Notes under the pieces: generated by a model
What the model was told of the DNA's origin: nothing
The model's database searches: none
The model's input: only the letters and a program-made list of their open reading frames with translations
Made by a program: the position numbers and the translations under genes
In this document: one piece after another, positions 24,121 to 46,061 of the stretch
Position numbering within the stretch: position 1 is the first letter of the stretch
How the letters are laid out: each line of letters starts with the position of its first letter
NCBI GenBank assembly: GCA_002316675.1
Contig: DCDZ01000028.1
Coordinates: 3,002-67,001 of the forward strand
Length of the DNA stretch: 64,000 bases
DNA from: Tyzzerella sp. UBA1042
Lineage (GTDB): Bacteria; Bacillota; Clostridia; Lachnospirales; Anaerotignaceae
Direction of reading: 5' to 3'

Positions 24121-24141
24121 GGTTGAAGGAGAGAAGCGATT

Positions 24142-24951: not shown

Positions 24952-25066
24952 ATACATCAATTTGAAAATGACCGGTCTGTTGGCCGGATGAGTATAAAGT
25001 ATCTTTTGAAAGGGTACATAATTTTGAAGAAATGACTTAGAGAGCTGGATATAAGGGAGGTTTCAT

Positions 25067-26062: not shown

Positions 26063-26065
26063 GGG

Positions 26066-26677: not shown

Positions 26678-27231
26678 TCTCCAAGTCTTTTACAAAACGG
26701 GAAAAGGTTTTGCTTGTCATTTTAATTGTTATTTTGCTTTCTGCGGTGTATTATTTTGCCGTGGCACGCCCTTCCATGAACCGTATTTCCGTAGCAGGCG
26801 ACCAAACAATGGCATTGCAGGATGAAATTACACTGGAAATGGCAAAGCTTACGAAAATAAAAGAGATGCAGGCAAAAATTGAAGAGGCAGCCTTAACGGA
26901 GCGCTTTAAAACCAGTATTCCCGATTACGATAATTTGGAAAATGTGATGAAGCAGTTGGATACAGTTTTAAGCAGCTCCACAGACTATAAGCTTTCGTTT
27001 TCACCAACCACGGAGGAAAGCGGCTTGCTTTATCGGCCCATTGATGTGGAGTTTGACTGTGCAAATTATGGGACTGCCCGAAGCATTATAGATAAAATTT
27101 ATGCCAGTCCGTTTAAAAGCATGATTGATACCCTCAGTGTGGATAATACGGAATATAAGGAAACGGATATTACCACTTCTCCCGTAAAGGTTACCATGAC
27201 GGTAATTTTTATCGAAAAGAAGACAAGCTAG
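26674..27231 (+). CDS. PilO-like bitopic pilus alignment protein
   Basis: One TM segment ([19 protein letters not shown]) plus a coiled coil. The start overlaps the previous stop. Assigned by architecture and position only. Confidence 0.5.
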
Positions 27232-27294: not shown

Positions 27295-27456
27295 ATACGC
27301 ATTTGAACAGAACTGACGGTATTGCAGTGTCTGAAATAGGCATGAGAAGGGTGAAACCCCTTTCAATACACAGTTTTTAAGGAGTATTAGGTTGCCGTAA
27401 GGGAAGGTTTTGAAAAAAAAGAAAGAATTCTGCAAAATTTTCATTTAGACAGCATA

Positions 27457-27487
27457 TTGACATTCCAGTGATTGTATGGGCTATAAC
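27457..27487 (+). promoter_or_regulatory. candidate promoter with 19-nt spacer upstream of the acyl-CoA dehydrogenase operon
   Basis: TTGACA (27457-27462), a 19-nt spacer, then TATAAC (27482-27487). It shares ATTGACATTCC...GCTATAA with the promoter at 35315-35345. Confidence 0.45.
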
Positions 27488-27596: not shown

Positions 27597-28751
27597 ATGA
27601 AAAGAATGGATTTTTCATTAACGAGAGAACAAGAAATGTTAAAAAAACTTGCTCGCCAATTCGCCGAAGCAGAATTGGAGCCCGTTGCAGAAGAAGTTGA
27701 TCGAGAGCATATTTTCCCGGCTGAAAACTTTAAAAAGATGGCAGCCATTGGTTTGACAGGAATCGGCGTTCCCAAAGAGTATGGCGGTTCCTGCGGAGGT
27801 ACATTGGAAAAAGTCATTGCAGTTTCCGAATTTGCGAAAAAATGTATGGCCTCCGCATCTATTTTATCAATTCATTTGATTGCTCCCCAAGCAATCTACA
27901 AATATGGCACCAGAGAGCAAAAGGAAAAATATCTTCCTCGTTTGACCAAAGGCGGAGAATTGGGTGCCTTTGCTTTAACGGAACCCAATGCAGGTTCTGA
28001 TGCTGCCGGCGTGAAAACAACAGCCATTTTTGATCCAAATACCAATGAATATGTTTTAAACGGAACAAAATGCTTTATTTCCGGCGGAAGCAGAGCAGGT
28101 GTTTTGGTCGTTTTTGTGTTGACTGCGCCGAAAAAAGGCTTGAAAGGAATGTCTGCGTTAATTGTGGAAAAAGGAACCCCCGGTTTCACCATTGGTAAAA
28201 TTGAATCCAAAATGGGTATTGCCGGTTCGGAAACAGCGGAGCTTATTTTTGAGGACTGTCGTGTTCCTGCGGAGAACCTTTTGGGAAAGGAAGGCAAAGG
28301 CTTTAAAATTGCTATGGAAGCCTTGGACGGTGCCAGAATCGGCGTAGGTGCACAGTCAATCGGCATTGCGGAAGGCGCCATTGATTTATCTGTAAAATAT
28401 GTTTACGAACGGATTCAATTTGGTAAGCCCATTGCGAATTTACAGGGCATTCAATGGTATATTGCAGATATGGCAACAAAGACCGCAGCAGCAAGGGCGC
28501 TGGTAGAATATGCGGCTTATCTTGAGGATGCAGGCAAGCCTTTTACAATGGAATCCGCCATGTGTAAGCTGAATGCATCAGAAAATGCACGCTTCGTTAC
28601 CAACTTGGCATTACAAATTCATGGCGGCTATGGATATATGAAGGATTATCCTTTGGAGCGGATGTATCGTGATGCAAAGATTACGGAGATTTATGAAGGA
28701 ACCTCGGAAATACATAAGGTTGTAATTGCCAGAGAGGTAATGAAAAGATAA
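27597..28751 (+). CDS. acyl-CoA dehydrogenase (butyryl/propionyl-CoA dehydrogenase type)
   Basis: 384 aa with FALTEPNAGSD, a GFKIAM..LDGARIG layout and a YEGTSEI C-terminal motif. EtfB and EtfA follow directly. Confidence 0.9.
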   Translation: MKRMDFSLTREQEMLKKLARQFAEAELEPVAEEVDREHIFPAENFKKMAAIGLTGIGVPKEYGGSCGGTLEKVIAVSEFAKKCMASASILSIHLIAPQAIYKYGTREQKEKYLPRLTKGGELGAFALTEPNAGSDAAGVKTTAIFDPNTNEYVLNGTKCFISGGSRAGVLVVFVLTAPKKGLKGMSALIVEKGTPGFTIGKIESKMGIAGSETAELIFEDCRVPAENLLGKEGKGFKIAMEALDGARIGVGAQSIGIAEGAIDLSVKYVYERIQFGKPIANLQGIQWYIADMATKTAAARALVEYAAYLEDAGKPFTMESAMCKLNASENARFVTNLALQIHGGYGYMKDYPLERMYRDAKITEIYEGTSEIHKVVIAREVMKR

Positions 28752-28766
28752 GAAGGAGTGTATAGG

Positions 28767-29570
28767 ATGAGAATTTATGTTTGTGTAAAACAGGTTCCGG
28801 ACACATCCGGAAAGGTTGCCGTAAACCCCGATGGAACATTAAACCGTGCCTCCATGACAGCAATCATCAATCCGGATGATATGAGTGCCATTGAGCAGGC
28901 CTTAAAATTAAAGGATGAAACGGGATGTCAAGTGACTGCTGTTACCATGGGGCCGCCTCCTGCGGAAGGAATGCTGCGAGAAATGATTGCTATGGGTGCT
29001 GATGACGGGGTTTTAATTTCCGCCAGAGAATTTGGCGGTTCCGATACTTTCGCAACATCTCAGATCATTGCAGCGGCTCTTTGCAAATTAGGACTTGGCA
29101 AGGAAGATATGATTTTCTGCGGCAGACAGGCTATTGATGGCGACACGGCACAGGTTGGCCCACAGATTGCTGAGAAATTAGATATTCCTCAGGTGACTTA
29201 TGCCTCGGCCATTAAAAAAAGCGGAAACAGCATTTTGGTGAAACGGATGCTGGAGGACGGATACATGATGATCGAGGTGAATACACCTTGCTTAATTACC
29301 TGTATTAAAGATAAAACGGTGACACCGCGCTATATGACATTGAATGGAATTATGGAATGCTATAGCAAGCCCCTTGCGGTTTTGGATTTTGAGGCCCTTA
29401 AGGATGAACCGCTGATTGAGCTGGATACCATTGGTCTGAAAGGATCCCCTACAAATATTTTCAAGTCCTTCACCCCGCCGCAAAAGGGTGTGGGCGTTAT
29501 GCTGCAGGGCACAGACAAAGAAAAAGTTGATGATTTGGTGGACAGATTGATGAAGAAGTATGTCATTTAA
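28767..29570 (+). CDS. etfB: electron transfer flavoprotein beta subunit
   Basis: MRIYVCVKQVPDTSGKVAV is the typical EtfB N-terminus. CGRQAIDGDTAQVGPQIAEKLDIPQVTY is also present. Confidence 0.9.
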   Translation: MRIYVCVKQVPDTSGKVAVNPDGTLNRASMTAIINPDDMSAIEQALKLKDETGCQVTAVTMGPPPAEGMLREMIAMGADDGVLISAREFGGSDTFATSQIIAAALCKLGLGKEDMIFCGRQAIDGDTAQVGPQIAEKLDIPQVTYASAIKKSGNSILVKRMLEDGYMMIEVNTPCLITCIKDKTVTPRYMTLNGIMECYSKPLAVLDFEALKDEPLIELDTIGLKGSPTNIFKSFTPPQKGVGVMLQGTDKEKVDDLVDRLMKKYVI

Positions 29571-29591
29571 CCGAAGGGAGATGGGCGAAGT

Positions 29592-30695
29592 ATGGCTTTC
29601 AATAGTGCGGATATAAATTCGTTTCAGGATATTTGGGTATTTTGTGAGCAGAGAGAGGGAAAGCTGGTAAACACGGATTTTGAATTAATCTCAGAAGGCA
29701 GAAAATTGGCTGACGAACGTGGGTCTAAGCTTGTCGGCATTTTGCTTGGGCACAAGGTAGGAGAGATTGCCAAGGAATTGGGTGGATATGGCGCGGATAA
29801 AATCATTGTTTGTGACCATCCGGACTTGAAATTTTACACCACAGATGCATATGCAAGGGTGCTTTGTGATGCGGTTATGGAGGAAAAGCCCGAAGTTATT
29901 TTAATCGGCGCTACCAATATTGGGCGTGATCTGGGGCCAAGATGCGCGGCACGCTTACATACCGGCTTGACAGCGGATTGTACGCATCTGGATATTGATA
30001 TGAAGAAATATGTGGATTTTCTTTCTACATCCTCTACCTTGGATGTCGCATCTATGTCGTTCCCCATGGCGGACACAAATTTGAAAATGACACGTCCGGC
30101 GTTCGGCGGACATTTGATGGCAACGATTATTTGCCCTCGTTTTCGTCCTTGTATGTCTACAGTGCGTCCGGGGGTAATGAAGAAATCAGAGTTTAGTCAG
30201 GCAAAGGCGGATGCGTGTGAAATTGAATTGCGTCAGGTTGCTCTTTCTAAAGAGGATTTGAAAACAAAGGTAGTCGACATCGTGAAGGAAGCGAAAAAAA
30301 TCGTTGATTTAATCGGTGCAGAAATCATTGTCTCCGTAGGACGTGGTATCAGTAAGGATGTGGAAGGAGGCATTGCTCTGGCAGAAAAGCTGGCTGATGC
30401 CTTTGGAAATGGCGTTGTGGGCGGTTCTCGTGCGGTAATTGATTCCGGTTGGCTTCCTGCGGATCATCAGGTTGGTCAAACGGGAAAGACTGTTCACCCG
30501 AAGGTATATGTTGCGCTAGGTATTTCCGGTGCAATTCAGCATAAAGCAGGTATGCAGGATTCTGAATTGATTATTGCGGTGAATAAAGATGAAACAGCAC
30601 CTATTTTTGACTGTGCGGATTATGGAATAACAGGAGATTTGTTTCAGATCGTTCCGATGATGATCGAGGCAGTAATAGAAGGAAAAAATGCATAA
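29592..30695 (+). CDS. etfA: electron transfer flavoprotein alpha subunit
   Basis: Contains the FAD-binding C-terminal motifs VGQTGKTVHPKVYVALGISGAIQH and IIAVNKDETAPIF. Confidence 0.9.
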   Translation: MAFNSADINSFQDIWVFCEQREGKLVNTDFELISEGRKLADERGSKLVGILLGHKVGEIAKELGGYGADKIIVCDHPDLKFYTTDAYARVLCDAVMEEKPEVILIGATNIGRDLGPRCAARLHTGLTADCTHLDIDMKKYVDFLSTSSTLDVASMSFPMADTNLKMTRPAFGGHLMATIICPRFRPCMSTVRPGVMKKSEFSQAKADACEIELRQVALSKEDLKTKVVDIVKEAKKIVDLIGAEIIVSVGRGISKDVEGGIALAEKLADAFGNGVVGGSRAVIDSGWLPADHQVGQTGKTVHPKVYVALGISGAIQHKAGMQDSELIIAVNKDETAPIFDCADYGITGDLFQIVPMMIEAVIEGKNA

Positions 30696-30947
30696 GTGTA
30701 CAAAAGGATAAAATGCTAGGTATTGGTAATGTTTCGGCTGATAGAAGCATTACCGGTGCAGCTAAAAATTTTCATTTTAGATTAGATGGCAATCAATGCA
30801 TTCCATGAAAAAAGGGAAATGGTTTCTGATTGCAGGACATGGAAAACCATGGTTTTACAAAAAATTCTTTCTGCATTTTAAGGAGTGCGATTGTAAGCCC
30901 AAGGGGGTTGTCCTCTAAAAGAGTTCTTTTGCAAAAAGAAAAGGGGA

Positions 30948-31328
30948 ATGACTATGAAGGAAGAAAATGTAACATTTCGTTATAGGATGTCGGATAGAGA
31001 TGTGTTTTACGGCGGCGGTGTAGTCAATGGCGCAAGAAGCATTACCCTTGCCAATGATGCTGCAAACCGACTGATGGCAAAGGTATTTCAAAATACAGGG
31101 CATTGCGTTGAGGTGAAAAAGGTGAGACTTTACGATCCTTGTTTTGCTGGGGATTATATGGAATTTATAGCAAGAGTGAAAAAAATGGAGGGAAACCGGG
31201 CTGTGATTGAAGTACGCTCCTTTAAAATTATTGAGGTGCCGGAAAATCCACTATATCCCAGCTCTATTGATGTACTTTCCAAGCCACCATTGTCTACGGT
31301 AGTGCAATTTGTTTATGAATCATACTAA
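30948..31328 (+). CDS. hotdog-fold protein, aminoacyl-CoA ammonia-lyase-like (copy 1)
   Basis: 126 aa with FRYRMSDRDVFYGGGVVNGARSITLAND...GDYMEFIARVKKMEGNRAVIEVRSFKI. Its size and pattern resemble, from memory, the small hotdog beta-alanyl-CoA / 3-aminobutyryl-CoA ammonia-lyases. The function is tentative. Confidence 0.6.
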   Translation: MTMKEENVTFRYRMSDRDVFYGGGVVNGARSITLANDAANRLMAKVFQNTGHCVEVKKVRLYDPCFAGDYMEFIARVKKMEGNRAVIEVRSFKIIEVPENPLYPSSIDVLSKPPLSTVVQFVYESY

Positions 31329-31355
31329 GCATTGTATTGACAGGAGAGAAAAATT

Positions 31356-32537
31356 ATGAAAAAAGCGCTGGAGGGTTTGAAGGTAATTGATCTTACAACG
31401 GCATTAAACGGGCCTTTTTGCACCATGATATTAGCAGACTATGGCGCAGAGGTTTTAAAAATTGAGCCGATTGAAGGGGAGCAATGTCGTTTTTGGGGCC
31501 CCTTGGATGAAAAAAGCGGTGAAAGCGGATTCTACAATTATGTAAACCGAAATAAAAAGGGTGCCACGTTGAATTTGAAGACGGAAAAAGGATTGCAGTT
31601 GTTTTATGATATTGTAAAAGATGCAGATATTCTGGTGGAAAATTTCAGGGGCGGCGTCACAAAAAAACTGAAAATTGATTATGAAATAATTAAAAAAATA
31701 AATCCTAACATTATTTATGCATCCGGCTCCGGTTTTGGGCAGTATGGTCCCGTTACCCACCGCCCATGCTATGACATTGTTGCCCAAGCTATGGGCGGGA
31801 TGATCAATTTAACGGGCTTTAAGGATAGAGACCCCGTGAAGGTTGGGCCGTCTGTGGCGGATCACGTTGCCGGAATTTATTTGGCGCTGGGGGTTATGAT
31901 AGCGCTTTACAACCGTAAGGTGACAGGGGTAGGACAGCAGGTGGACGTGGCAATGTTTGACACCATTTTCAGCATTTTGGAGAATGCTTTGGTGAACTAT
32001 ACCATGGGCGGAGTAATTACCGAAAGAAATGGCAATGTTGACCCATCCATTTCACCCTTTGATGTGTACGATTGTAAGGATGGGTTTGTGGCACTGGGCG
32101 TAGGGAATGACAGACTGTTCAATACGTTTTGCAATACCATTGGCCACCCGGAGCTTCTAGAAGACCCTCGTTATGCCACAAATCATTTGCGCTGTAATAA
32201 CTATATCCCGGAATTACAAAATACCATTCGCCGGTGGTGCGAAGGATATACCAAAAGTGAAATCGAAAACATCATGGATCAAGCGGGGATTCCCTGCGGC
32301 CCTGTTTTAAACGTGAAGGAGGCCATTGAGCATCCTCACATTCAGGCAAGAGAAATGATGGTGCATTGTCAACATCCCACGGCGGGAGATCAGTATTTTC
32401 AAGGCTGTGTGATTAAGCTTTCCGAGACACCCGGAGAGGTATATACATCATCTCCGCTGTTAGGCCAGCATAATAAAGAAATTTTTGGATTAACAGAAGA
32501 AGCGGTTAAAAAGCTGAAAAAAGAAGGCGTTATGTAA
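31356..32537 (+). CDS. family III CoA-transferase (CaiB/BaiF family)
   Basis: The N-terminus LEGLKVIDLTTALNGPFCTMILADYGAEVLKIEP is typical of the family. Length is 393 aa. Confidence 0.9.
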   Translation: MKKALEGLKVIDLTTALNGPFCTMILADYGAEVLKIEPIEGEQCRFWGPLDEKSGESGFYNYVNRNKKGATLNLKTEKGLQLFYDIVKDADILVENFRGGVTKKLKIDYEIIKKINPNIIYASGSGFGQYGPVTHRPCYDIVAQAMGGMINLTGFKDRDPVKVGPSVADHVAGIYLALGVMIALYNRKVTGVGQQVDVAMFDTIFSILENALVNYTMGGVITERNGNVDPSISPFDVYDCKDGFVALGVGNDRLFNTFCNTIGHPELLEDPRYATNHLRCNNYIPELQNTIRRWCEGYTKSEIENIMDQAGIPCGPVLNVKEAIEHPHIQAREMMVHCQHPTAGDQYFQGCVIKLSETPGEVYTSSPLLGQHNKEIFGLTEEAVKKLKKEGVM

Positions 32538-32590
32538 TCTTTAACTAGGAAATTTTATTTATAAAATAAAGAAGGGCGAGGTGTAGTTTT

Positions 32591-33049
32591 ATGAGAAAGG
32601 TATCTATTTTAAGTTATAACATGACCACAGCCGACGGCGCAAATCAGGATGGGTTAATTCCCATTGGCCGCCAGTTTGATTTTATTGGAGATGTGGAAAC
32701 GGAGGAAATGATCCTGGTAGACGGGGACGAATCTCTTTGCTTAGGCTACGAGGATGTAAAATGCTACAAGGATGTTTATGTTGGCGATATGATTGATTTT
32801 AAAGCGACGCTAACCAATGTGGGGAACACCTCCCGCGATTGCTGGATTGAGGTATTTAAGCTGGCAACTCCTGCATTCCGGGAAGGAAAAACTGATTGTA
32901 TGCCGGGAGAGATGGTTTGGTTTGACGAACCTATTTTATGCACCGAAGGAAAGGTACGTTTAGTTGTAAAGAAGCACTTGCAGCGTGGGGCACAGCCGGA
33001 AGGCAAAGTGATAGAGCCGTGGCGCCCATTGTCAGATTTTCCGGAATAA
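32591..33049 (+). CDS. hotdog-fold protein, aminoacyl-CoA ammonia-lyase-like (longer paralog)
   Basis: 152 aa with ...EEMILVDGDESLCLGYEDVKCYKDVYVGDMIDFKATLTNVGNTSRDCWIEVFKL. It is distantly similar in pattern to the two 126-aa proteins. The function is tentative. Confidence 0.55.
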   Translation: MRKVSILSYNMTTADGANQDGLIPIGRQFDFIGDVETEEMILVDGDESLCLGYEDVKCYKDVYVGDMIDFKATLTNVGNTSRDCWIEVFKLATPAFREGKTDCMPGEMVWFDEPILCTEGKVRLVVKKHLQRGAQPEGKVIEPWRPLSDFPE

Positions 33050-33074
33050 GCGATATATTCTGATAGAAAGGGGA

Positions 33075-33455
33075 ATGAATATGAATGAGCAAATTGTAAC
33101 CTATCGTTACAGAATGTCGGATAGAGATGTTTTTTACGGCGGCGGTGTAGTAAATGGCGCAAGAAGCATTACCCTTGCCAATGATGCTGCAAACCGTTTG
33201 ATGGCAAAGGTATACCAAAATACCGGACATTGCATTGAAGTGAAAAAAGTAAGGCTGTATGAGCCCTGTTTTGCGGGGGATTATATGGAATTTATAGCAA
33301 GAGTGAAAAAAATGGAGGGAAACCGGGCTGTGATTGAAGTACGTTCCTTTAAAATTATTGAAGTGCCGGAAAATCCGCCGTATCCCAGTTCTATTGATGT
33401 ACTACCTGAGCCGCCCCTGTCTACGGTGGTACAGTTTGTTTACGAAACATATTGA
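33075..33455 (+). CDS. hotdog-fold protein, aminoacyl-CoA ammonia-lyase-like (copy 2)
   Basis: 126 aa, about 90 percent identical to the product of 30948-31328, with long stretches of identical nucleotides. Confidence 0.6.
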   Translation: MNMNEQIVTYRYRMSDRDVFYGGGVVNGARSITLANDAANRLMAKVYQNTGHCIEVKKVRLYEPCFAGDYMEFIARVKKMEGNRAVIEVRSFKIIEVPENPPYPSSIDVLPEPPLSTVVQFVYETY

Positions 33456-33459
33456 ACAA

Positions 33460-33996
33460 ATGAATACCATAGCGTGTATTAAATCCAGAAGAAGTATCCG
33501 CCGGTATTTACCCAGGAAGGTTGCGCACGAGATCATTGAAGAGTTGATTGCGTGTGCTAAGTGGGCACCTTCATGGAATAATTGCAAGGCTGTGCGGTAT
33601 ACGGTTGTGGAGCGGGAGGAAGATTTAAAAGAACTTGCAGATACTCTGGTTGCATCAGAAAATATCCATATTGTTAGAAATGCACCGCTGATATTTATTA
33701 TTTCCAATGTGAAAAAGCGTTCTGGATATGAACGGGACGGACATACCTCTTCTGCCAAAGGGGATAGCTGGGAAATGTTTGATGCGGGTGCGGCATGCCA
33801 AACCTTATGCCTTGCAGCAGCGGAGCTGGGGCTGGGAACGGTGATTATGGGTACTTTTGATGAGATTGGTATTGGAAGGTTTGCAGGCATACCGGAGAAT
33901 GAAGAAATCATTGCGTTGGTTGCCTGCGGATATGCCGATGAAACACCCAAAGCACCACGAAGAAAAGAGGTAGCAGAGATACTGCGGTATTTATAA
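33460..33996 (+). CDS. nitroreductase family protein
   Basis: MNTIACIKSRRSIRRYL...APSWNNCKAVRY is the typical nitroreductase N-terminus. The start is taken at an internal Met (33460), not the ORF-track start that overlaps the previous gene. Confidence 0.85.
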   Translation: MNTIACIKSRRSIRRYLPRKVAHEIIEELIACAKWAPSWNNCKAVRYTVVEREEDLKELADTLVASENIHIVRNAPLIFIISNVKKRSGYERDGHTSSAKGDSWEMFDAGAACQTLCLAAAELGLGTVIMGTFDEIGIGRFAGIPENEEIIALVACGYADETPKAPRRKEVAEILRYL

Positions 33997-34227
33997 TTGC
34001 TACAAAAAGTATATAGTTTGGGATTGATATAATGAATATGCTCCTCGGTCAAAGCGGCTGGGGGGCATTTGCTTTTAGGGGGAAATACAGTATGGCAGCG
34101 AACTGTTTTAAAATATGGAAATGCTTGCATTTAAGGATGCCGAAAGTTTCATAGCGCCATTACAAGAGTAAAGGACAACGCTCAGATAGTATGGTAAAAT
34201 CCGGGCGTTGTCTGTATGTAGGCATGA

Positions 34228-35091
34228 TTATTTTTCTTGCTTTTTTTCAATCGGAACAATTATTTTGGTAACATGCTCGTCGATGTTATTAATGTCTAAG
34301 GGAGAGATTATAAATTCTTCAGAAACAGGACCAACAACTTTGTATTGGTTTTGGTTAATCCACTGAACCAGACGAATATGTGTATGAATAATATCGGCAT
34401 AATTTCCCGTATGAATCGCAGTAGCAGCAGTAAAGTTTCCAAAATCTCTGAAGCAGTTTTCTTCCTCCTGATTATCTACAGTAATGCCGAATTCAATATC
34501 TATATCAGAATATAGAAATTGCTCAAGAAGATTACAGTAATAGGTTACAATAATTGTCCCTTTACTTTTTACTTTTAGATTGTCGCATAAATCAAGAATT
34601 TCCACCCAACGATGCACTGAAACATCAATGTTAGAATAGTTTGACATAGTTTTTCGTGTGAAAACCAAATGCATTTGCGGAACTTCCTCCAGTTTAATAT
34701 CCTCCAGCGAAATGGATTCCTTTAAATTTAAAAGGTGTACCCCTGTTTTCAAACGCTGTAAAAAAGCACTGGTAGATGCATATTTTCGCTGCATACAGTT
34801 GATTTCTTCCAAGAGCTCGTTCAGTTTGGTTTCAATATTTTTTTCAAGATCACCTGCTTTGTTGCCTGTAATAATACATTGAATTTCTTTTAAGCTAAAA
34901 TCCATGGAACGAAGCTTTCGTATGATACATAATGTTACCAGTTGGTCCTTACTGTAATATCTATATCTGTTCACTTCATCTCGAAATTCAGGAACCACAA
35001 GTTCTATTTCGTCATAGTAGCGCAAAGTTTTGCTGGGAATGTTACAAATTTCAGAAACTTCTCTAATTGAGAATTTGTAATCATGGCTCAT
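34228..35091 (-). CDS. MerR family transcriptional regulator with a GyrI-like effector-binding domain
   Basis: MSHDYKFSIREVSEICNIPSKTLRYYDEIELVVPE is a MerR HTH, followed by a coiled coil and a C-terminal domain of about 150 aa. GGGAGGGTGAG RBS lies before the ATG at 35091. Confidence 0.85.
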   Translation of the reverse strand: MSHDYKFSIREVSEICNIPSKTLRYYDEIELVVPEFRDEVNRYRYYSKDQLVTLCIIRKLRSMDFSLKEIQCIITGNKAGDLEKNIETKLNELLEEINCMQRKYASTSAFLQRLKTGVHLLNLKESISLEDIKLEEVPQMHLVFTRKTMSNYSNIDVSVHRWVEILDLCDNLKVKSKGTIIVTYYCNLLEQFLYSDIDIEFGITVDNQEEENCFRDFGNFTAATAIHTGNYADIIHTHIRLVQWINQNQYKVVGPVSEEFIISPLDINNIDEHVTKIIVPIEKKQEK

Positions 35092-35314
35092 TTTCTCACC
35101 CTCCCCATAAAAGATATAAATTAGTATAGCATATTTGGTTAAATATATCAAATTTAAAGGAGGGAATATAGTAAAATTATTTTTAAGCATGATTTTTTTG
35201 TACACTTTCTGTTTGAACTATGTATATAAGGAATAAAAAATACGTTAGAATCCTGCAACAGGAATGTTTTGATAAAAAAATTTTTTTTTATCGGAAATTT
35301 ATGTTTATTTATTA

Positions 35315-35345
35315 TTGACATTCCCCCAACTGCAATTGCTATAAT
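35315..35345 (+). promoter_or_regulatory. consensus sigma-A-type promoter with 19-nt spacer (MerR-type architecture)
   Basis: TTGACA (35315-35320), a 19-nt spacer ttcccccaactgcaattgc, then TATAAT (35340-35345). It is divergent from the MerR gene and points toward the dihydropyrimidinase operon. Confidence 0.5.
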
Positions 35346-35728
35346 TTGATTATAGAAATTGTTAATTTAGGATATTTTTAGATTTGTTTACATTAAAATT
35401 TTGATGTTAATTTGCAAAATTTCATTATGATAGATAAGGAATTCGGAAAAAACTAATAATAAAATTCAATTGTCAGCACTATATTTTTACTTAATTATTT
35501 GTCTGACAATATAAAGAAAAAGCTTAATTGCATAGAATTTGTGAAAAAAAATACTGAATTGTGTGAATGAAAACTCAAGGTACTAAGCTTATTGCTATGC
35601 TTTATAATAAAACATAGTGCGAAATAAGTGTAAACATAATAACCATATAACATTATCTGGAAAGGGGGATGTGAATTTAAGGAAAAGTCAAATAAATGTC
35701 TATTTACTAACAAGGAAGGTGAGTGTTC

Positions 35729-37087
35729 ATGGACTTATTAATTAAAAATGGTACGATTGTAACAGAAAAAGAAATGTTCCAAGGCGATATTGCAGTAAAA
35801 GATGGAATTATAGCAGAAATTGGAAAAGATCTCTCAGACATTTCTTGTAAAAATGTTGTAGATGCAAAGGGAAAGCTTGTTTTGCCCGGCGCAATTGATG
35901 CACATACACATCTTGCTATGCCTTTTGGTGGAACGGTTTCTGCTGATGGCTATTATGCGGGCACCAGAGCAGCTGCTTGTGGCGGCACTACCACAGTATT
36001 TGATTTTGCTTTGCAGGATTTTGACGAAAGAATGATGGATGTCGTTAGAAGAAGAGATGCTCTTGCTGCACCGGAGGCCGCTGTGGATTATGCTTTTCAT
36101 ATCGGCGTAAAGGATGTTCATTGTGATCTTTTGGATTCCATGAAAGAGGCTGTTGAATTTGGCGTTCCCTCCTTTAAGGTTTTTATGGTTTACGATTTTG
36201 GTGTAACAGACGGTGTATTTTATAGAGTGCTTGAAAAAGCAAAAGAAATTGGTGCACTCATTTGTGTTCATGCGGAAAATAATGAATTAATCAACACCCT
36301 TGTAGAGAGATATATTTCAGAGGGAAAAACAAGCCCTTGGTATCATTATATGTCCCGTCCCGAATTTGTAGAGGCGGAGGCGGATTTCAGAGCAATTTCA
36401 TGGGCAAAATCTCTGGATGCTCCACTTTACATAGTACATTTAGCGAATGAAAAAGGTGTTGAATATGTAGCGAAGGCAAGAGAAGAAGGATATCGCATTT
36501 ATGCGGAAACTTGTCCTCAATATTTGCACTTCACCAGTGATGTTTATAAAAGAGAAGACGGCAGAAATTTTGTTTGTTCTCCTCCTATGAAGGGGCAAAA
36601 AAGTCAGGATGCACTTTGGAAGGCAGTGAAACAGGGTATCATCGATACGATTGCCACAGACCATTGCCCATTCCAACAGTCTGAAAAAGATTGGGGCAAG
36701 GATGATTTTAGAAAAATTCCCAATGGCTGTGCAGGCGTGGAAAATATGTATCCTTATATGCTTGACAAGGCAAACAAAGGAGACATAACTTTTATGAAAG
36801 CTGTTGAAATATGCTCCTCCAATCCGGCACGGATTTTTGGATGTACACAAAAAGGCAGTTTAACGGTAGGCAAGGATGCGGATATTGTTATTTATGATAC
36901 AGAAAAAGATTTTACAATCAAATGCGAAAATATGCATTCTGATTATGACCATACAATTTGGGAAGGAACAAAACTTCATGGCTATCCTGTGAAAACCTTC
37001 TCAAGAGGACGCCTTGTTTATGATGAAGGTGAATTTAAGGGCGAACCCGGATGGGGCAAGTTGATCAAAAGAAGGTTGAGCGAATAA
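35729..37087 (+). CDS. dihydropyrimidinase / D-hydantoinase
   Basis: MDLLIKNGTIVT...LVLPGAIDAHTHLAMPFGG...GGTTTVFDF, plus VHAEN and ATDHCPF motifs of cyclic amidohydrolases. Confidence 0.9.
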   Translation: MDLLIKNGTIVTEKEMFQGDIAVKDGIIAEIGKDLSDISCKNVVDAKGKLVLPGAIDAHTHLAMPFGGTVSADGYYAGTRAAACGGTTTVFDFALQDFDERMMDVVRRRDALAAPEAAVDYAFHIGVKDVHCDLLDSMKEAVEFGVPSFKVFMVYDFGVTDGVFYRVLEKAKEIGALICVHAENNELINTLVERYISEGKTSPWYHYMSRPEFVEAEADFRAISWAKSLDAPLYIVHLANEKGVEYVAKAREEGYRIYAETCPQYLHFTSDVYKREDGRNFVCSPPMKGQKSQDALWKAVKQGIIDTIATDHCPFQQSEKDWGKDDFRKIPNGCAGVENMYPYMLDKANKGDITFMKAVEICSSNPARIFGCTQKGSLTVGKDADIVIYDTEKDFTIKCENMHSDYDHTIWEGTKLHGYPVKTFSRGRLVYDEGEFKGEPGWGKLIKRRLSE

Positions 37088-37112
37088 AATCTAATAAGAT
37101 GGAGAGGGTTAT

Positions 37113-38711
37113 ATGAGTAAATATACGCAGCAGGAAAAGAACGGGCTTTACGAATTAACGCCGGAAGCTGCTTCCGAACTGAGTAACTCTGAGTATTACA
37201 ATCAGGATTTAGCTCCCACCACGGTAAATGAAAGAACATGGAATGCGGTAAGCATCTGTAACCTTTGGGTAGGTATGTCGATTTGTGTTCCATCCTTGGC
37301 ATTGGCCTCCTCCTTGGTTGCATTGGGCATTTCACCCTTACTTGCAGTTTTTAATGTTATTTTGGGAAACTTGATTGTGTTAATTCCAATTCAGTTAAAT
37401 TCTAAAATCGGAACCAAATATGGCATTCCGTTTCCCATTTTTTCCAGAATGACATTTGGAAATAAGGGAACACAGCTGCCGACATTTTCCCGGTCAATCA
37501 TCGCTTGCGGTTGGACCGCAGTACAAAGCTGGGTTGGCGGCGGTGCGGTTGCTGCTTTAATTGGTGTTGCAATTCCAATGTTTGCTGATCAAAGTATAAA
37601 GGTTTCTCTTCCCGGAAACGACGGTGTTGTTGTAGGACAGTTGATTGGATTCTTCCTGTTTATGCTTTTTGTATTTTTGGTTGCATACAACGGGATTGAA
37701 AAGGTAAAATGGGTTCAAAATATTGGCGGTCCTATTCTGATTATTGTAATTTTAGGCTTGCTGTTATGGTCTTTAAATGCAATTTCAACCTCGGGCCATT
37801 CTATGGCAGATGTATTTGCTGTTGGCAATGATGAGGTACTGATTGAACAAAATGGTGGATTTGCCTTTGTATATATGGCTGGGCTAACGGGTAACATTGC
37901 CTTTTGGGCAACCATGGCTCTCAATATTCCTGACTTCTCAAGATATGCAAAGAGCCAGAAAAGCCAGTTTATGGGTCAGTTGACAGGTATGCCTATTCCT
38001 ATGGCATTATGCGCTTTTGTTGGTGCACTGTTTGCTCAGGCTACAAAATATACAGTTGGCGAAGCTTTATTTGACCCCACAAGTGTTTTCTACTATGTAG
38101 ACAATAAGCTGATGGTTATCATCTGTGCCATAGGTGTAATTATGGCTACCATTACAACTTGTGTTGCGGCCAATGTGGTTGCTCCTGCCAATGGTTTCTC
38201 CAATATTGCACCTAAGAAAATCAGCTATAAGAAGGGTGTAATCATTACTTGCCTTATCGCAACCTTTATCACACAGCCTTGGTGGATTTATGGTTCCGGA
38301 TCCAGCTATATTTTCAATTGGCTGAATAATTATGGAACCATCATTGCGCCGGTTGCCGCAATTTTAATTGCTGACTACTTTATCTGTAAAAAGCAGCTGG
38401 TTGATGTTGCTGGGTTATATCAGGGTGAAGGCGGAAGATATTGGTATAGCGGTGGATGGAACAAAAATGCAATGATTGCATGGGTAGTTTCCTTTATTAT
38501 TCCACTGGTGGGCAATACTGCATTGAAATATCAAGCAGGTTCAGGCTTAAAGCCAAACTTCATACAATTCTTGGCTGCAAATGGGTACGCTGTATCTTTC
38601 ATCATTGCCATTGTTGTTTATGTAGCTTTGATGAAATCCACGGTAGGCAAGGATCACTATGGATTTGTATCAGAAGAAGAGCATGAGAGTTTTACAATGA
38701 ACGGAAATTAA
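37113..38711 (+). CDS. NCS1 family nucleobase (uracil/cytosine/allantoin-type) permease
   Basis: 532 aa with about 12 TM segments. The N-terminal motif NQDLAPTTVNERTWN is typical of NCS1 transporters. Confidence 0.88.
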   Translation: MSKYTQQEKNGLYELTPEAASELSNSEYYNQDLAPTTVNERTWNAVSICNLWVGMSICVPSLALASSLVALGISPLLAVFNVILGNLIVLIPIQLNSKIGTKYGIPFPIFSRMTFGNKGTQLPTFSRSIIACGWTAVQSWVGGGAVAALIGVAIPMFADQSIKVSLPGNDGVVVGQLIGFFLFMLFVFLVAYNGIEKVKWVQNIGGPILIIVILGLLLWSLNAISTSGHSMADVFAVGNDEVLIEQNGGFAFVYMAGLTGNIAFWATMALNIPDFSRYAKSQKSQFMGQLTGMPIPMALCAFVGALFAQATKYTVGEALFDPTSVFYYVDNKLMVIICAIGVIMATITTCVAANVVAPANGFSNIAPKKISYKKGVIITCLIATFITQPWWIYGSGSSYIFNWLNNYGTIIAPVAAILIADYFICKKQLVDVAGLYQGEGGRYWYSGGWNKNAMIAWVVSFIIPLVGNTALKYQAGSGLKPNFIQFLAANGYAVSFIIAIVVYVALMKSTVGKDHYGFVSEEEHESFTMNGN

Positions 38712-38883
38712 AGGCTTTAGAAATTTTGAACGCAATGCTTGTTCATAACGGACAGTGTTTTATAACACATATGTATTGCATTGCGGTGCAATACACTTTG
38801 GACTATCCCCTTGGCGTAAAGCCAAGAATCCAAACGCCCGTTTCATAAAGGTTGAAAAGATAAGTGATAGAAAGAAGGAATGA

Positions 38884-40149
38884 ATGATGTACAGAAGCAG
38901 TTTAAAGAGAACAAGTGAAAAAATCCATACTTTTTCTAAGTTTGGCGATGCCGGCCACGGCGGAATTACAAGATATTCTTTATCCGACGAGGCGAAACAA
39001 GCAAGACAGTACTATGTAGAAAGAATGACGAAAATAGGAGCAACCATCGAAACAGACGATTTTGCCAATATGTATGCCACATTGCCGGGCAGCGATTCCA
39101 ATGCAAAAAGAATTGTTATGGCTTCCCATGCAGACTCTGTTAAAAACGGCGGAAACTATGACGGTATCTTGGGTGTTATCGGTGCCATGGAGGTTTTGGA
39201 AACAGTTGCGGCGGAGAAAATTCCCCATAAGCATCCTTTGACGGCAATGATCTGGACAAATGAGGAGGGGTCTCTTTATCCCCCTGCAATGATGAGCTCC
39301 GGTGTTGTTTGCAATGCGTATTTGCCAAAAGAAATTGCAAAAAATTTCAAGGAAGAAAATATGCTTGCATCTAAGAGTGTTTTAGATAAAGTTTCTACCT
39401 TTGGTGAAGCTTTGGAGAAAAGCGGTTTGAAAGGTGCAAAGGAAAACCGTTTGTCACCCGATAAATACAAAGCAATGTTTGAATTACATATTGAGCAGGG
39501 CCCTATTTTGGAGAATGCCGGCTTAGATGTTGGCGTGGTAACTTGTGTTTTGGGTATGTTTAACACCAGAATAAAATTCTATGGTCAGGCAGCTCATGCA
39601 GGCACATTCCCCATGGAATTCCGCCAAGATGCACTTTTTGCGGCAGCACAGGTACTTTGCTATCTTCATGCAGAAATCGATAAGCTTGGACATCCGGAAT
39701 TGGTATATACTACAGGCGAAATGGTTGTACATCCTTGTGTACATACGGTAATTCCTGATTATGTAGATTTCTCCATTGATGTGCGTCATGAAGATCCGGA
39801 GGTTCTGAAAAAGGTTTACCAGATTGTAAGAAGCCTGGAAGGAAAAGAATGGGCAAAATGCCGTTGTGAAGTTGTGGATCAATGGAATCGTGATACCGTT
39901 TATTTTGACAAGAAGCTAGTAGGTTATGTGAAAGAGGCCGCCGAAGAGTTGCATACCAAGCATCAATATATCAATAGTGGTGCGGGGCATGATGCACAGT
40001 TTGCGGCTTATGTATTACCGACAACCATGATATTTGTATCTTCTGAAAAAGGATTGTCTCATTGTGAACCAGAGCATACAAGTGATGAGGTTTGTAATGA
40101 AGGAATCAGCGTATTGCTGAATGCAGTTTTAAAGTGTGATAAAGAATAG
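38884..40149 (+). CDS. M20-family Zn-dependent amidohydrolase (N-carbamoyl-amino-acid / beta-ureidopropionase type)
   Basis: GGITRYSLSDE..., ASHADSVKNGGNYDGILGV, WTNEEG and HIEQGPILE motifs match the allantoate amidohydrolase / AmaB family. Confidence 0.85.
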   Translation: MMYRSSLKRTSEKIHTFSKFGDAGHGGITRYSLSDEAKQARQYYVERMTKIGATIETDDFANMYATLPGSDSNAKRIVMASHADSVKNGGNYDGILGVIGAMEVLETVAAEKIPHKHPLTAMIWTNEEGSLYPPAMMSSGVVCNAYLPKEIAKNFKEENMLASKSVLDKVSTFGEALEKSGLKGAKENRLSPDKYKAMFELHIEQGPILENAGLDVGVVTCVLGMFNTRIKFYGQAAHAGTFPMEFRQDALFAAAQVLCYLHAEIDKLGHPELVYTTGEMVVHPCVHTVIPDYVDFSIDVRHEDPEVLKKVYQIVRSLEGKEWAKCRCEVVDQWNRDTVYFDKKLVGYVKEAAEELHTKHQYINSGAGHDAQFAAYVLPTTMIFVSSEKGLSHCEPEHTSDEVCNEGISVLLNAVLKCDKE

Positions 40150-40188
40150 TTTTGTGAAAACAGAAAATTTTTATGACTAAGACTGCTG

Positions 40189-40223
40189 GGAGGCGTCTGA
40201 ACTTTGGGACGTCTCCTTCTTTC
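40189..40223 (+). terminator. candidate terminator after the amidohydrolase gene
   Basis: ggaggcgtc (40189-40197) pairs with gacgtctcc (40208-40216) with one mismatch, followed by a T-rich ttctttc. Confidence 0.4.
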
Positions 40224-40430
40224 ATCACATTTTGAATAAGAAACAATGGAAAGAAGGTTGATTTGAAAAGAAAAACGCAATTTGGGGATGAGGAATTTAA
40301 CAAAAAAGTTCTTGTTCATTTCGGCTTCTGAAGATAACAGAGACAAAAATAAGTTTTGGTTTGCCGTAAAAAGGAATCGGTGAAAGTTTAGGTGATACTA
40401 TGCAGATTGATCCTGAACAGATGAGAGGAG

Positions 40431-41717
40431 TTGAAGAATTTGAGTAAAGTAATTAAATCAACATATGTTTCTGAGGCTGTTGATGGCTTTACCCCAAGAA
40501 CCGCTATGGAGGAAGCTTCAAGGTGCTTATTATGCCATGATGCCCCTTGCAGCAAAAGCTGTCCAGCCGGCACAGATCCTGCAAAATTTATTCGCTCTAT
40601 TCGGTTTAGAAATGTTAAGGGTGCGGCGGAAACGATCAGAGAGAACAATGTTTTGGGTGGCAGCTGTGCCAGAGTCTGTCCTTATGATCGGCTTTGTGAA
40701 GAAGCTTGCAGCAGATGCGGCATTGATAAACCCATTGAGATTGGAAAATTACAAAGATTTGCTGTGGAGCAGGAGGAAGCTTTACATATGAATGTACTGC
40801 AGGTTCCCGCTACAAAGAAGGGTGTAAAGGTTGCCTGTGTTGGCTCCGGCCCCGCCTCTCTTGCTTGTGCGGCAATGCTTGCGCAAGAGGGATATGAGGT
40901 TACGATTTATGAAGCTGAGGAAAAGGCCGGCGGCGTTTTAACTTATGGGATTGCCCCCGCCAGATTGCCGCAGTATGTTGTTGATCATGATATTAGTACA
41001 GTGAAAAATTTAGGCGTAAAGTTCATTTTCAATACAAAGATTGGAAAAGATATTTCCATGGAAGCACTGCAAAAAGAATACGGTGCAATATTTATCGGTG
41101 TCGGCTTATGGCAGGAAAAACTTCCGGAAATCCCCGGTGTGGGCCTTCCCGGTGTTCTGGCGGCGGCAGATTTTTTGAAAAAAGCAAGAAAGTCAGGGGG
41201 TTCGTATCATCCCGGTAACAGGGTTGTTGTAATCGGCGGCGGCAACGTTGCTATGGACTGCGCTGTTTCTGCAAAACTATTGGGCGCAGAAAAGGTGGAT
41301 ATTTATTACAGAAGAACCATTGAGGAAGCACCCGCTGATATGGCGGAATTCCAGTATGTGCTGTCTCTGGGTGTTTCCATTACAACTAACTTTGCGCCTG
41401 CTGAGGTGCTTGGCACAGACAAAGTGGAAGCAATGCGCTTTAAAGGCAGAGACGGTGTATCTGAGGCAAAGGTTATGGTGGATACAGTTATTTTTGCAAT
41501 CGGACAAGGTGCAGATGATATGACAGAGTTAGCGCCCTTTGCACTGAATGAAAAAGGTTTAATTAAAGTTGATGATTTCTGCAAAACAAATATTGACGGT
41601 ATTTTTGCAGGTGGTGACGTGGCTTTAGGCGGGAAGACTGTTGTGGAAGCTGTTGCATCGGGTAAAATTGCGGCGGTACATATGATGAATTATCTTGCTA
41701 AGAAAGAGGTGAAGTAA
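40431..41717 (+). CDS. preT: NAD-dependent dihydropyrimidine dehydrogenase subunit PreT-like (glutamate synthase small-subunit fold)
   Basis: [23 protein letters not shown] (Fe-S) then [14 protein letters not shown] and [14 protein letters not shown] dinucleotide folds. TTG start after a GAGAGGAG RBS. Confidence 0.85.
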
Positions 41718-41718
41718 A

Positions 41719-42972
41719 ATGGGGATCAAAAAAGACTTATCTATTGATTATTTAGGTGTGAGATGTGAAAATCCTTTTTTCTTGTCCTCATCTCCTGTAG
41801 GCAGTAATTACGAAATGGTTGCCAAGGCTTTTGAAGCCGGCTGGGGCGGTGTTTTTTACAAGACAATCGGTATTTTCGTTGCGGATGAGTGCTCACCTCG
41901 TTTTGACCATGTGCAAAAAGAAGGGATGCCTTGGCTGGGCTTTAAGAATATGGAGCAGATTTCCGATAAGCCTACGGAAGTCAACTTTGAAAATATGTAT
42001 AAGCTAAAAAAGGCTTATCCCGAAAAAATCATGGTTGCTTCTATTATGGGCTCCAATGAGGAAGAGTGGCGTAAGCTGGCAAAAATGTGTGATGAAGTTG
42101 GTGTGGATTTAATTGAAGGAAACTTCTCTTGTCCTCAGATGACTTCCCATGCTATGGGCTCCGACGTTGGTACAAACCCAGACTTGGTGCGGGCGTATTC
42201 CAAGGCTGTGGCGGAAACCACAAAAATTCCTTTTATCGCAAAAATGACACCGAATATTACAGATATGACCATTCCTGCCATAGCAGCAATTGAAGGCGGC
42301 GCAAAGGGCATTTCTGCAATCAATACCATTAAATCCATCACAAATATTGACTTGGAAAATATGACGGCGATGCCCGTTGTAAACGGAAAATCCTCCATTT
42401 CCGGCTATTCCGGTGCGGCGGTGAAACCCATTGCCCTGCGCTTTGTGGCACAGCTGCTGCAAAATGAGAAGCTGAAAAATGTGCCTCTTTCCGGCATTGG
42501 CGGTATTGAAACATGGAGAGACTGCTTGGAATTCCTGCTGCTTGGATGCAGAAATCTGCAGGTAACTACATCTGTGATGCAGTATGGTTACAGAGTGGTT
42601 GAAGATATGTCTAATGGTCTGATGCACTGGATGGATGAAAGGGGCTATCATAAGCTGGATGATTTCATCGGATCAGCATTGGGCAACATCATTCCTGCGG
42701 AAGATTTGAACCGTGATTTTAAAATTTTGCCTGACTTTAGCCAGACAAAATGTGTTGGTTGCGGCAGATGCTACATTTCTTGCTACGATGCAGGCCATCA
42801 GGCAATTGATTGGAATGCGGATAAGCGCAGACCGGAATTAAACGAAAAATGCGTTGGCTGCCATCTCTGTCTGAATGTATGTCCTGTTGCAAATTGTATT
42901 ACACCGGGCGAAATCAAATGGAAAGACGGCAGAGAAAAAGTAGGCGTTGCTTTAAAGAAGTCTTATGAATAA
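41719..42972 (+). CDS. preA: dihydropyrimidine dehydrogenase subunit PreA-like (DHOD-fold plus two 4Fe-4S motifs)
   Basis: DHOD/DHPD-like barrel ([29 protein letters not shown]) and C-terminal [11 protein letters not shown] and [12 protein letters not shown] clusters. Confidence 0.9.
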
Positions 42973-43133: not shown

Positions 43134-43397
43134 ATGGAGGTGCTTGTATTGACGTTAGCCGAATTGGAAGAAATGAAGAAGGTCAATCCGTGGGAAATAG
43201 ACCCGGAGGAGCTAATTGATATTAATGATGTGGTGATTCGTACAGATTTGCCAAGGGAAGAAAGAATTGCCGATTTTATTCAGCAAATCAAAAATCCGTA
43301 CCTGTTTCGCTGCGGAGATTTGGTAGTCAAGGTAGAATTTACCGGAGAGGAAATTACGCTGTCAGATCGGATTCAGCAGTATATGAGGTTGATGTGA
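43134..43397 (+). CDS. small conserved hypothetical protein preceding the recombinase genes
   Basis: 87-aa ORF (LAELEEMKKVNPWEIDPEELIDINDV...NPYLFRCGDLVVKVEF). From memory, proteins of this kind often precede clostridial large serine recombinase genes. Its function is unknown. Confidence 0.6.
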   Translation: MEVLVLTLAELEEMKKVNPWEIDPEELIDINDVVIRTDLPREERIADFIQQIKNPYLFRCGDLVVKVEFTGEEITLSDRIQQYMRLM

Positions 43398-43450
43398 GCA
43401 TTGGAACCGTAGGAAAGTAGAGTACCTTTGTAGCTTTGAGAGGGTTGCGT

Positions 43451-45052: not shown

Positions 45053-45067
45053 TATTTTTAAGGAGCA

Positions 45068-46051: not shown

Positions 46052-46061
46052 GGGGAGTATT

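Follow-up and report, generated by a model that had tools for sequence, protein, structure and literature searches.

What becomes of the beta-alanine that is left when an anaerobe degrades uracil reductively? The question is raised by a 64,000-nucleotide stretch of DNA from Tyzzerella sp. UBA1042 (GenBank assembly GCA_002316675.1, contig DCDZ01000028.1, positions 3,002 to 67,001 of the forward strand; the window), in which two gene blocks adjoin between positions 27597 and 42972. The first encodes a predicted acryloyl-CoA reductase (AcrC-EtfAB), a family III CoA-transferase and three small hotdog proteins, the second encodes enzymes of reductive pyrimidine degradation, and the gene of a MerR/GyrI-type regulator lies between them. 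An earlier interpretation, here called the sequence-only reading, had joined both blocks into a single route from uracil or thymine to propionyl-CoA or isobutyryl-CoA, with the reduction step serving as an electron sink. We find it probable, from gene content, homology and conserved neighborhoods, that the blocks form a two-operon catabolic unit by which uracil, and probably thymine as well, would be turned into propionate (and isobutyrate).

Results

How often do the two blocks occur together? A scan with aligned sequences of the 152-aa hotdog protein (ly152), in which each species was represented by a single genome, gave 78 loci, and we took ±10 kb around each as its neighborhood. At least two of the genes for dihydropyrimidinase (dht), the M20 amidohydrolase (M20) and the two subunits of dihydropyrimidine dehydrogenase (preT and preA) lie within that distance in 26 of the 78 loci, and they do so in at least six gene orders. 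That the genes lie together in so many species-level genomes (26 of 78), and in several gene orders, is far beyond chance. The pyrimidine-linked loci belong to Anaerotignum, Chakrabartyella, Terrisporobacter, Clostridium thermopalmarium, Anaerostipes, Dysosmobacter/Oscillibacter, Absicoccus, Pseudoramibacter, Peptoniphilus and Anaerococcus.

The Anaerotignum gene order recurs in Chakrabartyella and Dysosmobacter/Oscillibacter, preT-preA lie upstream of acrC in Clostridium thermopalmarium and Terrisporobacter, and in Anaerostipes the pyrimidine block is inverted and accompanied by an ortholog of beta-alanyl-CoA:ammonia lyase 2 (Acl2; 77–78% identity, in A. hadrus). Pseudoramibacter alactolyticus carries DUF1097-preT-preA-dht-thrE-thrE-M20-CoAT-ly152-ly126 on one strand (CoAT, CoA-transferase gene), with gaps, as read between annotated neighbors, of <50 bp. 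Peptoniphilus stercorisuis has the co-directional order CoAT-acl-acl-ly152-ly126-acd-DUF1097-dht-M20-brnQ, where acd is the acyl-CoA dehydrogenase gene. Since this clustering is repeated, independently arranged and includes apparent single operons, it argues that the pyrimidine enzymes and the CoA-transferase and lyase belong to one pathway, and it strongly supports their functional coupling.

Other genes recur beside ly152 as well. Within the same distance, a CoA-transferase gene is found in 75 of the 78 loci, a MerR/GyrI regulator gene in 64, an AcrC-type dehydrogenase gene in 61, Etf genes in 55–57 (EtfB in 57) and a gene for a BrnQ-family amino-acid carrier in 19. The regulator goes with the acr/CoA-transferase/lyase module, including at loci that lack pyrimidine genes, and not with the pyrimidine genes. 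The closest loci are those of Anaerotignum species, among them A. propionicum and A. neopropionicum, in which the 152-aa protein is 93–96% identical to that of the window and the DNA ~81% identical; synteny is kept and includes the upstream pilus genes. Because of this identity and synteny, we assign the window to an Anaerotignum species related to Clostridium propionicum, in which the fermentation of beta-alanine was first elucidated. Herrmann et al. 2005 and Hetzel et al. 2003 are said to have described that fermentation as proceeding via Act, Acl1/Acl2 and AcrABC. The window resembles this system in genus, in chemistry, in its AcrC/EtfAB reductase, in its family III CoA-transferase and in its Acl2-homologous hotdog proteins.

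Could the small hotdog proteins provide the ammonia-lyase of such a pathway? This assignment had been the weakest link of the sequence-only reading, which had itself suggested comparing the proteins by profile and structure. The genes are ly126a (30948–31328), for an extra 126-aa lyase-like subunit, ly152 (32591–33049), for an Acl-like protein of 152 aa, and ly126b (33075–33455), for a divergent partner subunit of 126 aa; here and below, coordinates are those of the window and features lie on the forward strand unless stated otherwise. None of the three proteins has a Pfam match. The best solved relative of each is Acl2 (PDB 4mtu/4mzq), with E=7.5e-7 for ly126a and E=5e-15 for ly152 against 4mtu and E=1.7e-7 for ly126b against 4mtu/4mzq. 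All three also match the 3-aminobutyryl-CoA ammonia-lyase model NF052388, at 54–62 bits and far under its cut-off of 160. When families were compared by hhalign, that of ly152 aligned with the Acl family over its full length (100% probability, E=5.6e-61, 32% identity) and that of the 126-aa proteins matched it with 98.8% probability (E=1e-16). The AF2 model of ly152 (pLDDT 80.6) has 4mtu as its top Foldseek match (E=2e-10, TM 0.70/0.74), followed by hotdog thioesterases (E ~2e-6). A DGDxSLxLGY motif is common to ly152 and Acl2 and absent from the 126-aa protein. These results firm up the lyase assignment, and RefSeq already labels the 152-aa protein 'beta-alanyl-CoA:ammonia lyase'.

The window proteins are not orthologs of Acl1/Acl2. 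Identity to Acl2 is 35% for ly152 and 24–27% for ly126, there is no Acl2 ortholog within the 64-kb window, and the true orthologs of Acl1/Acl2 (82–86%) sit elsewhere in Anaerotignum genomes. Moreover, whereas Acl2 is a single small protein (143–144 residues in PDB records), the candidate lyase of the window is a 152-aa and 126-aa pair that is often fused: ly152 is followed directly by ly126 in all 78 loci, and in 34 of them the two form one open reading frame (ORF) of ~282 aa; Chakrabartyella piscis has such a natural fusion, of 282 aa. Given this invariable adjacency and frequent fusion, we read ly152/ly126 as the parts of one lyase, either hetero-oligomeric or double-hotdog. They look like a two-part lyase that is related to both Acl1/Acl2 and Kal, the 3-aminobutyryl-CoA ammonia-lyase of lysine fermentation, and distinct from either. 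As homology and the structural model suggest, such an enzyme would be a beta-aminoacyl-CoA ammonia-lyase, and ly152 is probably its catalytic part. Although Kal belongs to the same hotdog lyase superfamily, the window proteins differ from it in their scores of 54–62 bits where its model demands 160, in having a family III CoA-transferase as partner and in being encoded with an AcrC-type reductase; lysine-fermentation genes are not among the recurrent neighbors of the 78 loci.

The two 126-aa proteins are recent duplicates, identical at 114 of 126 aa and, in DNA, at 90% of positions (repeat partner 33067–33366). A. propionicum (locus L005) has no 126-aa gene between etfA and the CoA-transferase gene and holds a single copy. 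Elsewhere in Anaerotignum, a genome carries either a single lyase pair or the complete duplication, in the order ly152-ly126-CoAT-ly152-ly126. The window seems to hold a partial version of that duplication from which the first ly152 has been lost; the 253 non-coding bp that separate etfA from ly126a (30696–30947) contain no relic of such a copy.

Which enzyme would activate the beta-amino acid? The candidate is the family III CoA-transferase encoded at 31356–32537 (PF02515, E=4e-129). The proven beta-alanine CoA-transferase of A. propionicum is Act (CAG29276), used in PMC10266731, and the first 133 residues of Act, also a family III enzyme, were taken from the supplement of PMC13067684. The window enzyme is 55% identical to these N-terminal 133 aa and 47% identical to a full-length Act ortholog, and is on this evidence a paralog of Act, not its ortholog. 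Where, then, is the ortholog? Anaerotignum sp. MB30-C6 has a cluster of its own, acl2-act-merR(GyrI)-amino-acid permease (locus L079, 10001–15108), more than 1 Mb from its acr locus. This cluster encodes an Act ortholog (92%), an Acl2 ortholog (82%) and a MerR/GyrI paralog that is 43% identical to the regulator of the window. Taken together, the MB30-C6 cluster and the window locus indicate that lyase, CoA-transferase and regulator exist in Anaerotignum as two paralogous sets, a classical one linked to an amino-acid permease and that of the window, linked to acrCAB and the pyrimidine operon. In the comparison with the C. propionicum system, the likeness thus extends to the regulator, a paralog of the MerR/GyrI protein encoded beside acl-act, and to the promoter type; the difference is that the Act and Acl orthologs are encoded at another locus, beside an amino-acid permease, and that the genes of the window are joined to acrCAB and a pyrimidine operon. 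The window set could act on beta-alanine, on 3-aminoisobutyrate derived from thymine, or on both.

The reductase genes head the first block. AcrC, the acryloyl-CoA reductase (propionyl-CoA dehydrogenase) subunit (27597–28751), matches the NCBIfam equivalog NF042972 at 684 bits (cut-off 640). It is followed by an EtfB-type electron-transfer subunit of the reductase complex (28758–29570; PF01012, E=7e-38) and an EtfA-type subunit (29592–30695; PF01012 and PF00766), the latter under the RefSeq name 'acryloyl-CoA reductase electron transfer subunit beta'. The A. propionicum ortholog of AcrC is 93% identical and shares a 90% cluster with the characterized AcrC (UniRef100_G3KIM8), and in A. neopropionicum the acrC-etfBA locus is the sole complete acr cluster. 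According to the summary of PMC9205015, which does not mention beta-alanine or uracil, the reductase of A. propionicum carries out NADH-dependent, non-bifurcating reduction of acryloyl-CoA. AcrC-EtfAB of the first block is thus predicted to be the general acryloyl-CoA reductase of the cell, central to its acrylate pathway. Since these genes are canonical acrC and etfAB, the enzyme would be common to the fermentation of lactate, alanine and ethanol and would not be specific to uracil.

The second block is predicted to be a complete reductive pyrimidine operon, with a two-subunit dihydropyrimidine dehydrogenase, a dihydropyrimidinase and an M20 amidase. Dihydropyrimidinase (35729–37087) scores 490 bits against TIGR02033 (cut-off 393), and an NCS1 nucleobase permease (37113–38711; PF02133, E=3.5e-88) is encoded downstream of it. 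The third gene (38884–40149) encodes a predicted N-carbamoyl-beta-alanine amidohydrolase of the beta-ureidopropionase type; this protein matches the solved enzyme of that name (PDB 8c46, E=3e-63) and scores 336 bits against TIGR01879 (cut-off 204), a subfamily model, so that its substrate specificity is a prediction. Then come PreT, the NAD-binding/FAD and Fe-S subunit of dihydropyrimidine dehydrogenase (40431–41717; PF14691, Fer4_20, and PF07992, Pyr_redox_2), and, directly 3′ of it, PreA, the FMN/Fe-S catalytic subunit (41719–42972), which matches the equivalog NF006183 at 608 bits (cut-off 335). A perfect hairpin with a 10-bp stem (38771–38796) lies in the gap between the permease and M20 genes (38712–38883), and a terminator-like hairpin (40188–40217) lies in the 280-bp gap between M20 and preT (40150–40430). 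The pyrimidine block may therefore yield more than one transcript or be subject to attenuation.

All 14 genes that the sequence-only reading had named are intact ORFs where it placed them, and its family assignments hold in the ORF listing and in profile searches. From the sequence, we re-placed the start codons of the nitroreductase gene (ATG at 33460, not 33334), the regulator gene (35091) and dht (35729). The nitroreductase-family flavoprotein (33460–33996; PF00881, E=4.5e-30), the last protein of the first block, appears to be accessory and is found in only 15 of the 78 related loci. UniProt names it RutE, a malonic semialdehyde reductase; we reject this name, as its score of 45 bits lies far under the RutE cut-off of 152.

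Are the two blocks regulated together? The acr-lyase operon is closed by a hairpin that resembles an intrinsic terminator (34038–34068; 13-pair stem, 7 GC pairs, T-rich tail), and because this terminator and an oppositely oriented regulator gene separate the blocks, the region comprises at least two transcription units. The regulator (34228–35091, reverse strand) joins a MerR-type helix-turn-helix domain to a GyrI-like effector domain (PF13411 and PF06445), a BmrR-like architecture. A repeat search found that positions 27455–27486, 5′ of acrC, are 72% identical over 32 nt to positions 35313–35344, 5′ of dht. These repeats coincide with two promoters, P_acr (27457–27487; TTGACA, 19-nt spacer, TATAAC) and P_pyd (35315–35345; TTGACA, 19-nt spacer, TATAAT), both of which begin TTGACATTCC and have MerR-type spacing. 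A 19-bp spacer is a hallmark of promoters that are activated by MerR-family proteins.

Both promoters are conserved. P_acr is identical or nearly so in the seven Anaerotignum loci that include the region upstream of acd, and P_pyd is the best-conserved island of its intergenic region in an alignment of eight Anaerotignum sequences. Across the related loci, the form with the 19-bp spacer occurs 5′ of acd in 31 of 69 loci, compared with 1 of 69 for a 17-bp form, and 5′ of dht in 13 of 22 loci, compared with none of 22. The acl-act operon of MB30-C6 also has a 19-bp-spacer promoter, TTGACATTCCATTTGCTGTATCGGATAAACT, closely like P_acr. With a shared promoter type, 19-bp spacers and a MerR/GyrI gene in between, co-regulation of the two blocks is plausible. 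The occurrence of such a regulator and promoter at both acl2-act of MB30-C6 and the window further suggests that paralogous MerR regulons for beta-amino-acid fermentation may form a family.

The ~380-nt leader of the pyrimidine operon contains a conserved inverted repeat (35588–35628; arms CTTATTnCTATG / CATAG..AATAAG; CTTATTGCTATG ... CATAGTGCGAAATAAG), the arms of which are invariant across the eight Anaerotignum sequences and the loop of which is variable. Those eight sequences show no covariation in the repeat, its folding energy is weak, and the motif is not repeated upstream of acrC. It could be an RNA hairpin or a DNA operator for a second regulator. No Rfam family matches at gathering thresholds anywhere in the window, and hence the long leader contains no known riboswitch.

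The surroundings of the locus are varied. Directly upstream is a type IV pilus or type II secretion-like cluster (19445–27231; A24 prepilin peptidase, PilM-like protein and others), syntenic with A. propionicum. Directly 3′ of preA are a small ORF (~43139–43396) and three tandem genes for large serine recombinases of 538, 327 and 522 aa (43436–47630), beyond which lie sigma-factor genes at 47602–48318 (reverse strand) and 49299–50012 (forward strand). This stretch may represent an element, mobile or skin-like, that has entered the chromosome beside the catabolic locus. Farther on are two tandem GAPDH genes (50925–51932 and 52397–53416) and an integrase fragment (53940–54488). A low-GC stretch within 52000–64000 (~0.33, against 0.43 elsewhere), in which most ORFs have no family match and a VanY/M15 peptidase is encoded, looks like a prophage or island remnant.

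Discussion

Gene content, homologies, conserved neighborhoods, gene fusions and promoter architecture are what we observe at these loci. If the two operons act together, how would they do so? We infer the steps from family membership and gene context, and with them the substrates, the heteromeric nature of the lyase, the regulation and the physiology. The NCS1 permease would take up uracil or thymine, PreT/PreA would reduce the base with NADH, dihydropyrimidinase would open the ring and the M20 amidohydrolase would release CO2, NH3 and beta-alanine (or 3-aminoisobutyrate). The family III CoA-transferase would then charge the beta-amino acid with CoA taken from propionyl-CoA (or acetyl-CoA), and acryloyl-CoA (or methacrylyl-CoA) would arise as the two-part hotdog lyase ly152/ly126 split off the second NH3. 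Finally, AcrC-EtfAB, the genes of which open the operon that also encodes the lyase, would use NADH to reduce acryloyl-CoA to propionyl-CoA. On balance, uracil and 2 NADH would yield propionate, CO2 and 2 NH3 with no net substrate-level ATP, and the gain would be nitrogen and an electron sink, with the base as electron acceptor. The MerR/GyrI-type activator encoded between the operons would probably turn on both via their 19-bp-spacer promoters.

The single route put forward by the sequence-only reading, from uracil or thymine to propionyl-CoA or isobutyryl-CoA with the reduction as electron sink, is in part sustained by the recurrent co-localization, the paralogy to Act, the homology of the lyase and the similarity of the promoters. 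It has to be qualified in that the reductase appears general and not uracil-specific, the CoA-transferase and lyase set is paralogous to the classical acl2-act set, and the MerR gene follows the acr module.

Several points weigh against a dedicated pyrimidine fermentation. The acr genes would encode the general reductase of the acrylate pathway, and in Anaerotignum they could be adjacent partly for that reason. The classical acl2-act genes elsewhere may handle beta-alanine, in which case the paralogous set of the window may have another substrate. The acr/CoA-transferase/lyase module occurs without nearby pyrimidine genes in 52 of the 78 loci, as it does in 14 of the 19 loci that carry BrnQ; the presence of this carrier in the module of those 14 loci suggests that the primary substrate of the module is an imported amino acid and not necessarily derived from pyrimidines. 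Dyad symmetry in the promoter spacers is weak (5–8 of 11 pairs), and for that reason we claim no operator. Lastly, breakdown of 5-fluorouracil by A. hadrus was reported to stop at the fluoro-ureido acid (PMC11036815) although an M20 homolog is present in the locus that we examined.

What else could explain the arrangement? One possibility, which we consider unlikely, is that ly152/ly126 and the CoA-transferase are specialized for the thymine branch, converting 3-aminoisobutyrate via 3-aminoisobutyryl-CoA and methacrylyl-CoA to isobutyryl-CoA, and that uracil-derived beta-alanine is left to Act and Acl1/Acl2. Two paralogous sets in one genome suggest divided work, A. hadrus and Peptoniphilus hold lyases of both the Acl type and the ly152/126 type in one cluster, and a gene of the BrnQ family of branched-chain amino-acid carriers lies inside the module in 19 loci. 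Most of the 78 loci, however, have lyases of the ly152/126 type only, beside an AcrC-type reductase, AcrC matches the acryloyl-CoA reductase equivalog, and no sequence feature discriminates a methyl-branched substrate.

A second possibility is that the blocks are neighbors but independent, such that the pyrimidine operon scavenges nitrogen and stops at beta-alanine while the reductase, CoA-transferase and lyase ferment an unrelated beta-amino acid that the cell imports, for instance 3-aminobutyrate or beta-alanine of exogenous origin. The blocks are indeed transcribed separately, parted by a terminator and by a regulator gene in the opposite orientation, and the module lacks pyrimidine neighbors at two-thirds of its loci (52 of 78). 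In classical work, Clostridium uracilicum reportedly formed beta-alanine as the end product, which would favor such independence. Against this stand the recurrence of the association in 26 species with varied gene orders, the single co-directional clusters of pyrimidine, CoA-transferase and lyase genes in Pseudoramibacter and Peptoniphilus, and a promoter type common to both blocks, and we therefore think it quite improbable. That the hotdog proteins are acyl-CoA thioesterases or hydratases, for example releasing acrylate or propionate or hydrating acryloyl-CoA, is very improbable, since, despite the thioesterases that come next in the structural comparison and a weak Pfam 4HBT match on the 126-aa half of a fused homolog, Acl2 is the best match in sequence, profile and structure (identity of 30–35%, compared with 12–20% to thioesterases), all three proteins match the 3-aminobutyryl-CoA ammonia-lyase model, if below its cut-off, and the lyase genes are paired with the Act-paralogous CoA-transferase gene in 75 of 78 loci.

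How does the proposed uracil-to-propionate route compare with known extensions of reductive pyrimidine degradation (Pyd pathways)? A 2020 study of pyrimidine gene clusters in anaerobes (PMC7332683) describes only aminotransferase-based extensions, and the terms 'CoA' and 'acryl' are absent from its text. These extensions comprise PydD/PydE, an aminotransferase and a malonic semialdehyde reductase, and a uracil-to-acetyl-CoA route in Bacillus megaterium (PMC7332683). As in the window, genes of the PydA/B/C type are clustered there with genes for processing beta-alanine. Whereas those pathways transaminate beta-alanine to malonic semialdehyde, the route of the window would activate it with CoA, eliminate ammonia and reduce the resulting enoyl-CoA; it would be reductive, would suit anaerobes and would end in propionate.

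The gut bacterium A. hadrus offers another comparison. Its preTA/hydA cluster, implicated in the inactivation of 5-fluorouracil, has orthologs of the preT, preA, DUF1097 (ycdZ) and dihydropyrimidinase genes, and in resting cells 5-fluorouracil was degraded as far as fluoro-ureidopropionate; the study stated that a beta-ureidopropionase homolog is absent and considered the ureido acid a dead end (PMC11036815). The A. hadrus locus in our set (L027, 7627–19975, metagenome-assembled; also L025) contains an intact M20 amidohydrolase gene, the product of which is 68% identical to that of the window. It also encodes a two-part ThrE-family transporter, a MerR regulator, a CoA-transferase, ly152/ly126, an acyl-CoA dehydrogenase and the Acl2 ortholog. 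Either the M20 enzyme of A. hadrus refuses the fluorinated substrate, or it was unexpressed, or it has another role.

The individual reactions of the proposed route are textbook biochemistry. The sequence-only reading had been aware of no description of their coupling, and we likewise found no account of pyrimidine degradation joined to beta-alanyl-CoA/acryloyl-CoA chemistry in the full-text literature, a body from which subscription journals are mostly absent, so that a description may be published elsewhere. In the full texts searched, no paper pairs 'acryloyl-CoA reductase' with 'dihydropyrimidin*'. We see in the predicted route a further variant of the extended Pyd pathways, both CoA-dependent and reductive, with a putative and so far uncharacterized two-part lyase.

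The chances are about even, in our judgment, that many anaerobic Firmicutes, including such abundant genera of the human gut as Anaerostipes, Dysosmobacter/Oscillibacter, Pseudoramibacter and Peptoniphilus, have an unrecognized CoA-dependent fermentation of pyrimidines to propionate or isobutyrate, in which the bases would be both nitrogen source and electron acceptor, the lyase a heteromeric or fused double-hotdog protein and the MerR/GyrI regulator a dedicated one. Such a pathway could also act on catabolites of fluoropyrimidines, for example alpha-fluoro-beta-alanine. It would bear on the bacterial metabolism of 5-fluorouracil, given that A. hadrus, one of the main bacteria that carry preTA in the human gut, holds all of the downstream genes beside preTA.

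If the coupling is real, the known endings of the reductive pyrimidine pathway would be joined by a third, of an anaerobe type, that does without transamination to malonic semialdehyde, and a new two-part hotdog ammonia-lyase would be defined. As Acl and Act serve in engineered pathways for acrylate, 3-hydroxypropionate and CO2 fixation, a second natural set of such enzymes would be of practical interest. The coupling would also explain how strict fermenters could regain the two nitrogen atoms of uracil and at the same time dispose of electrons on the base, and would make the turnover of nucleic acids in the gut a source of propionate or isobutyrate.

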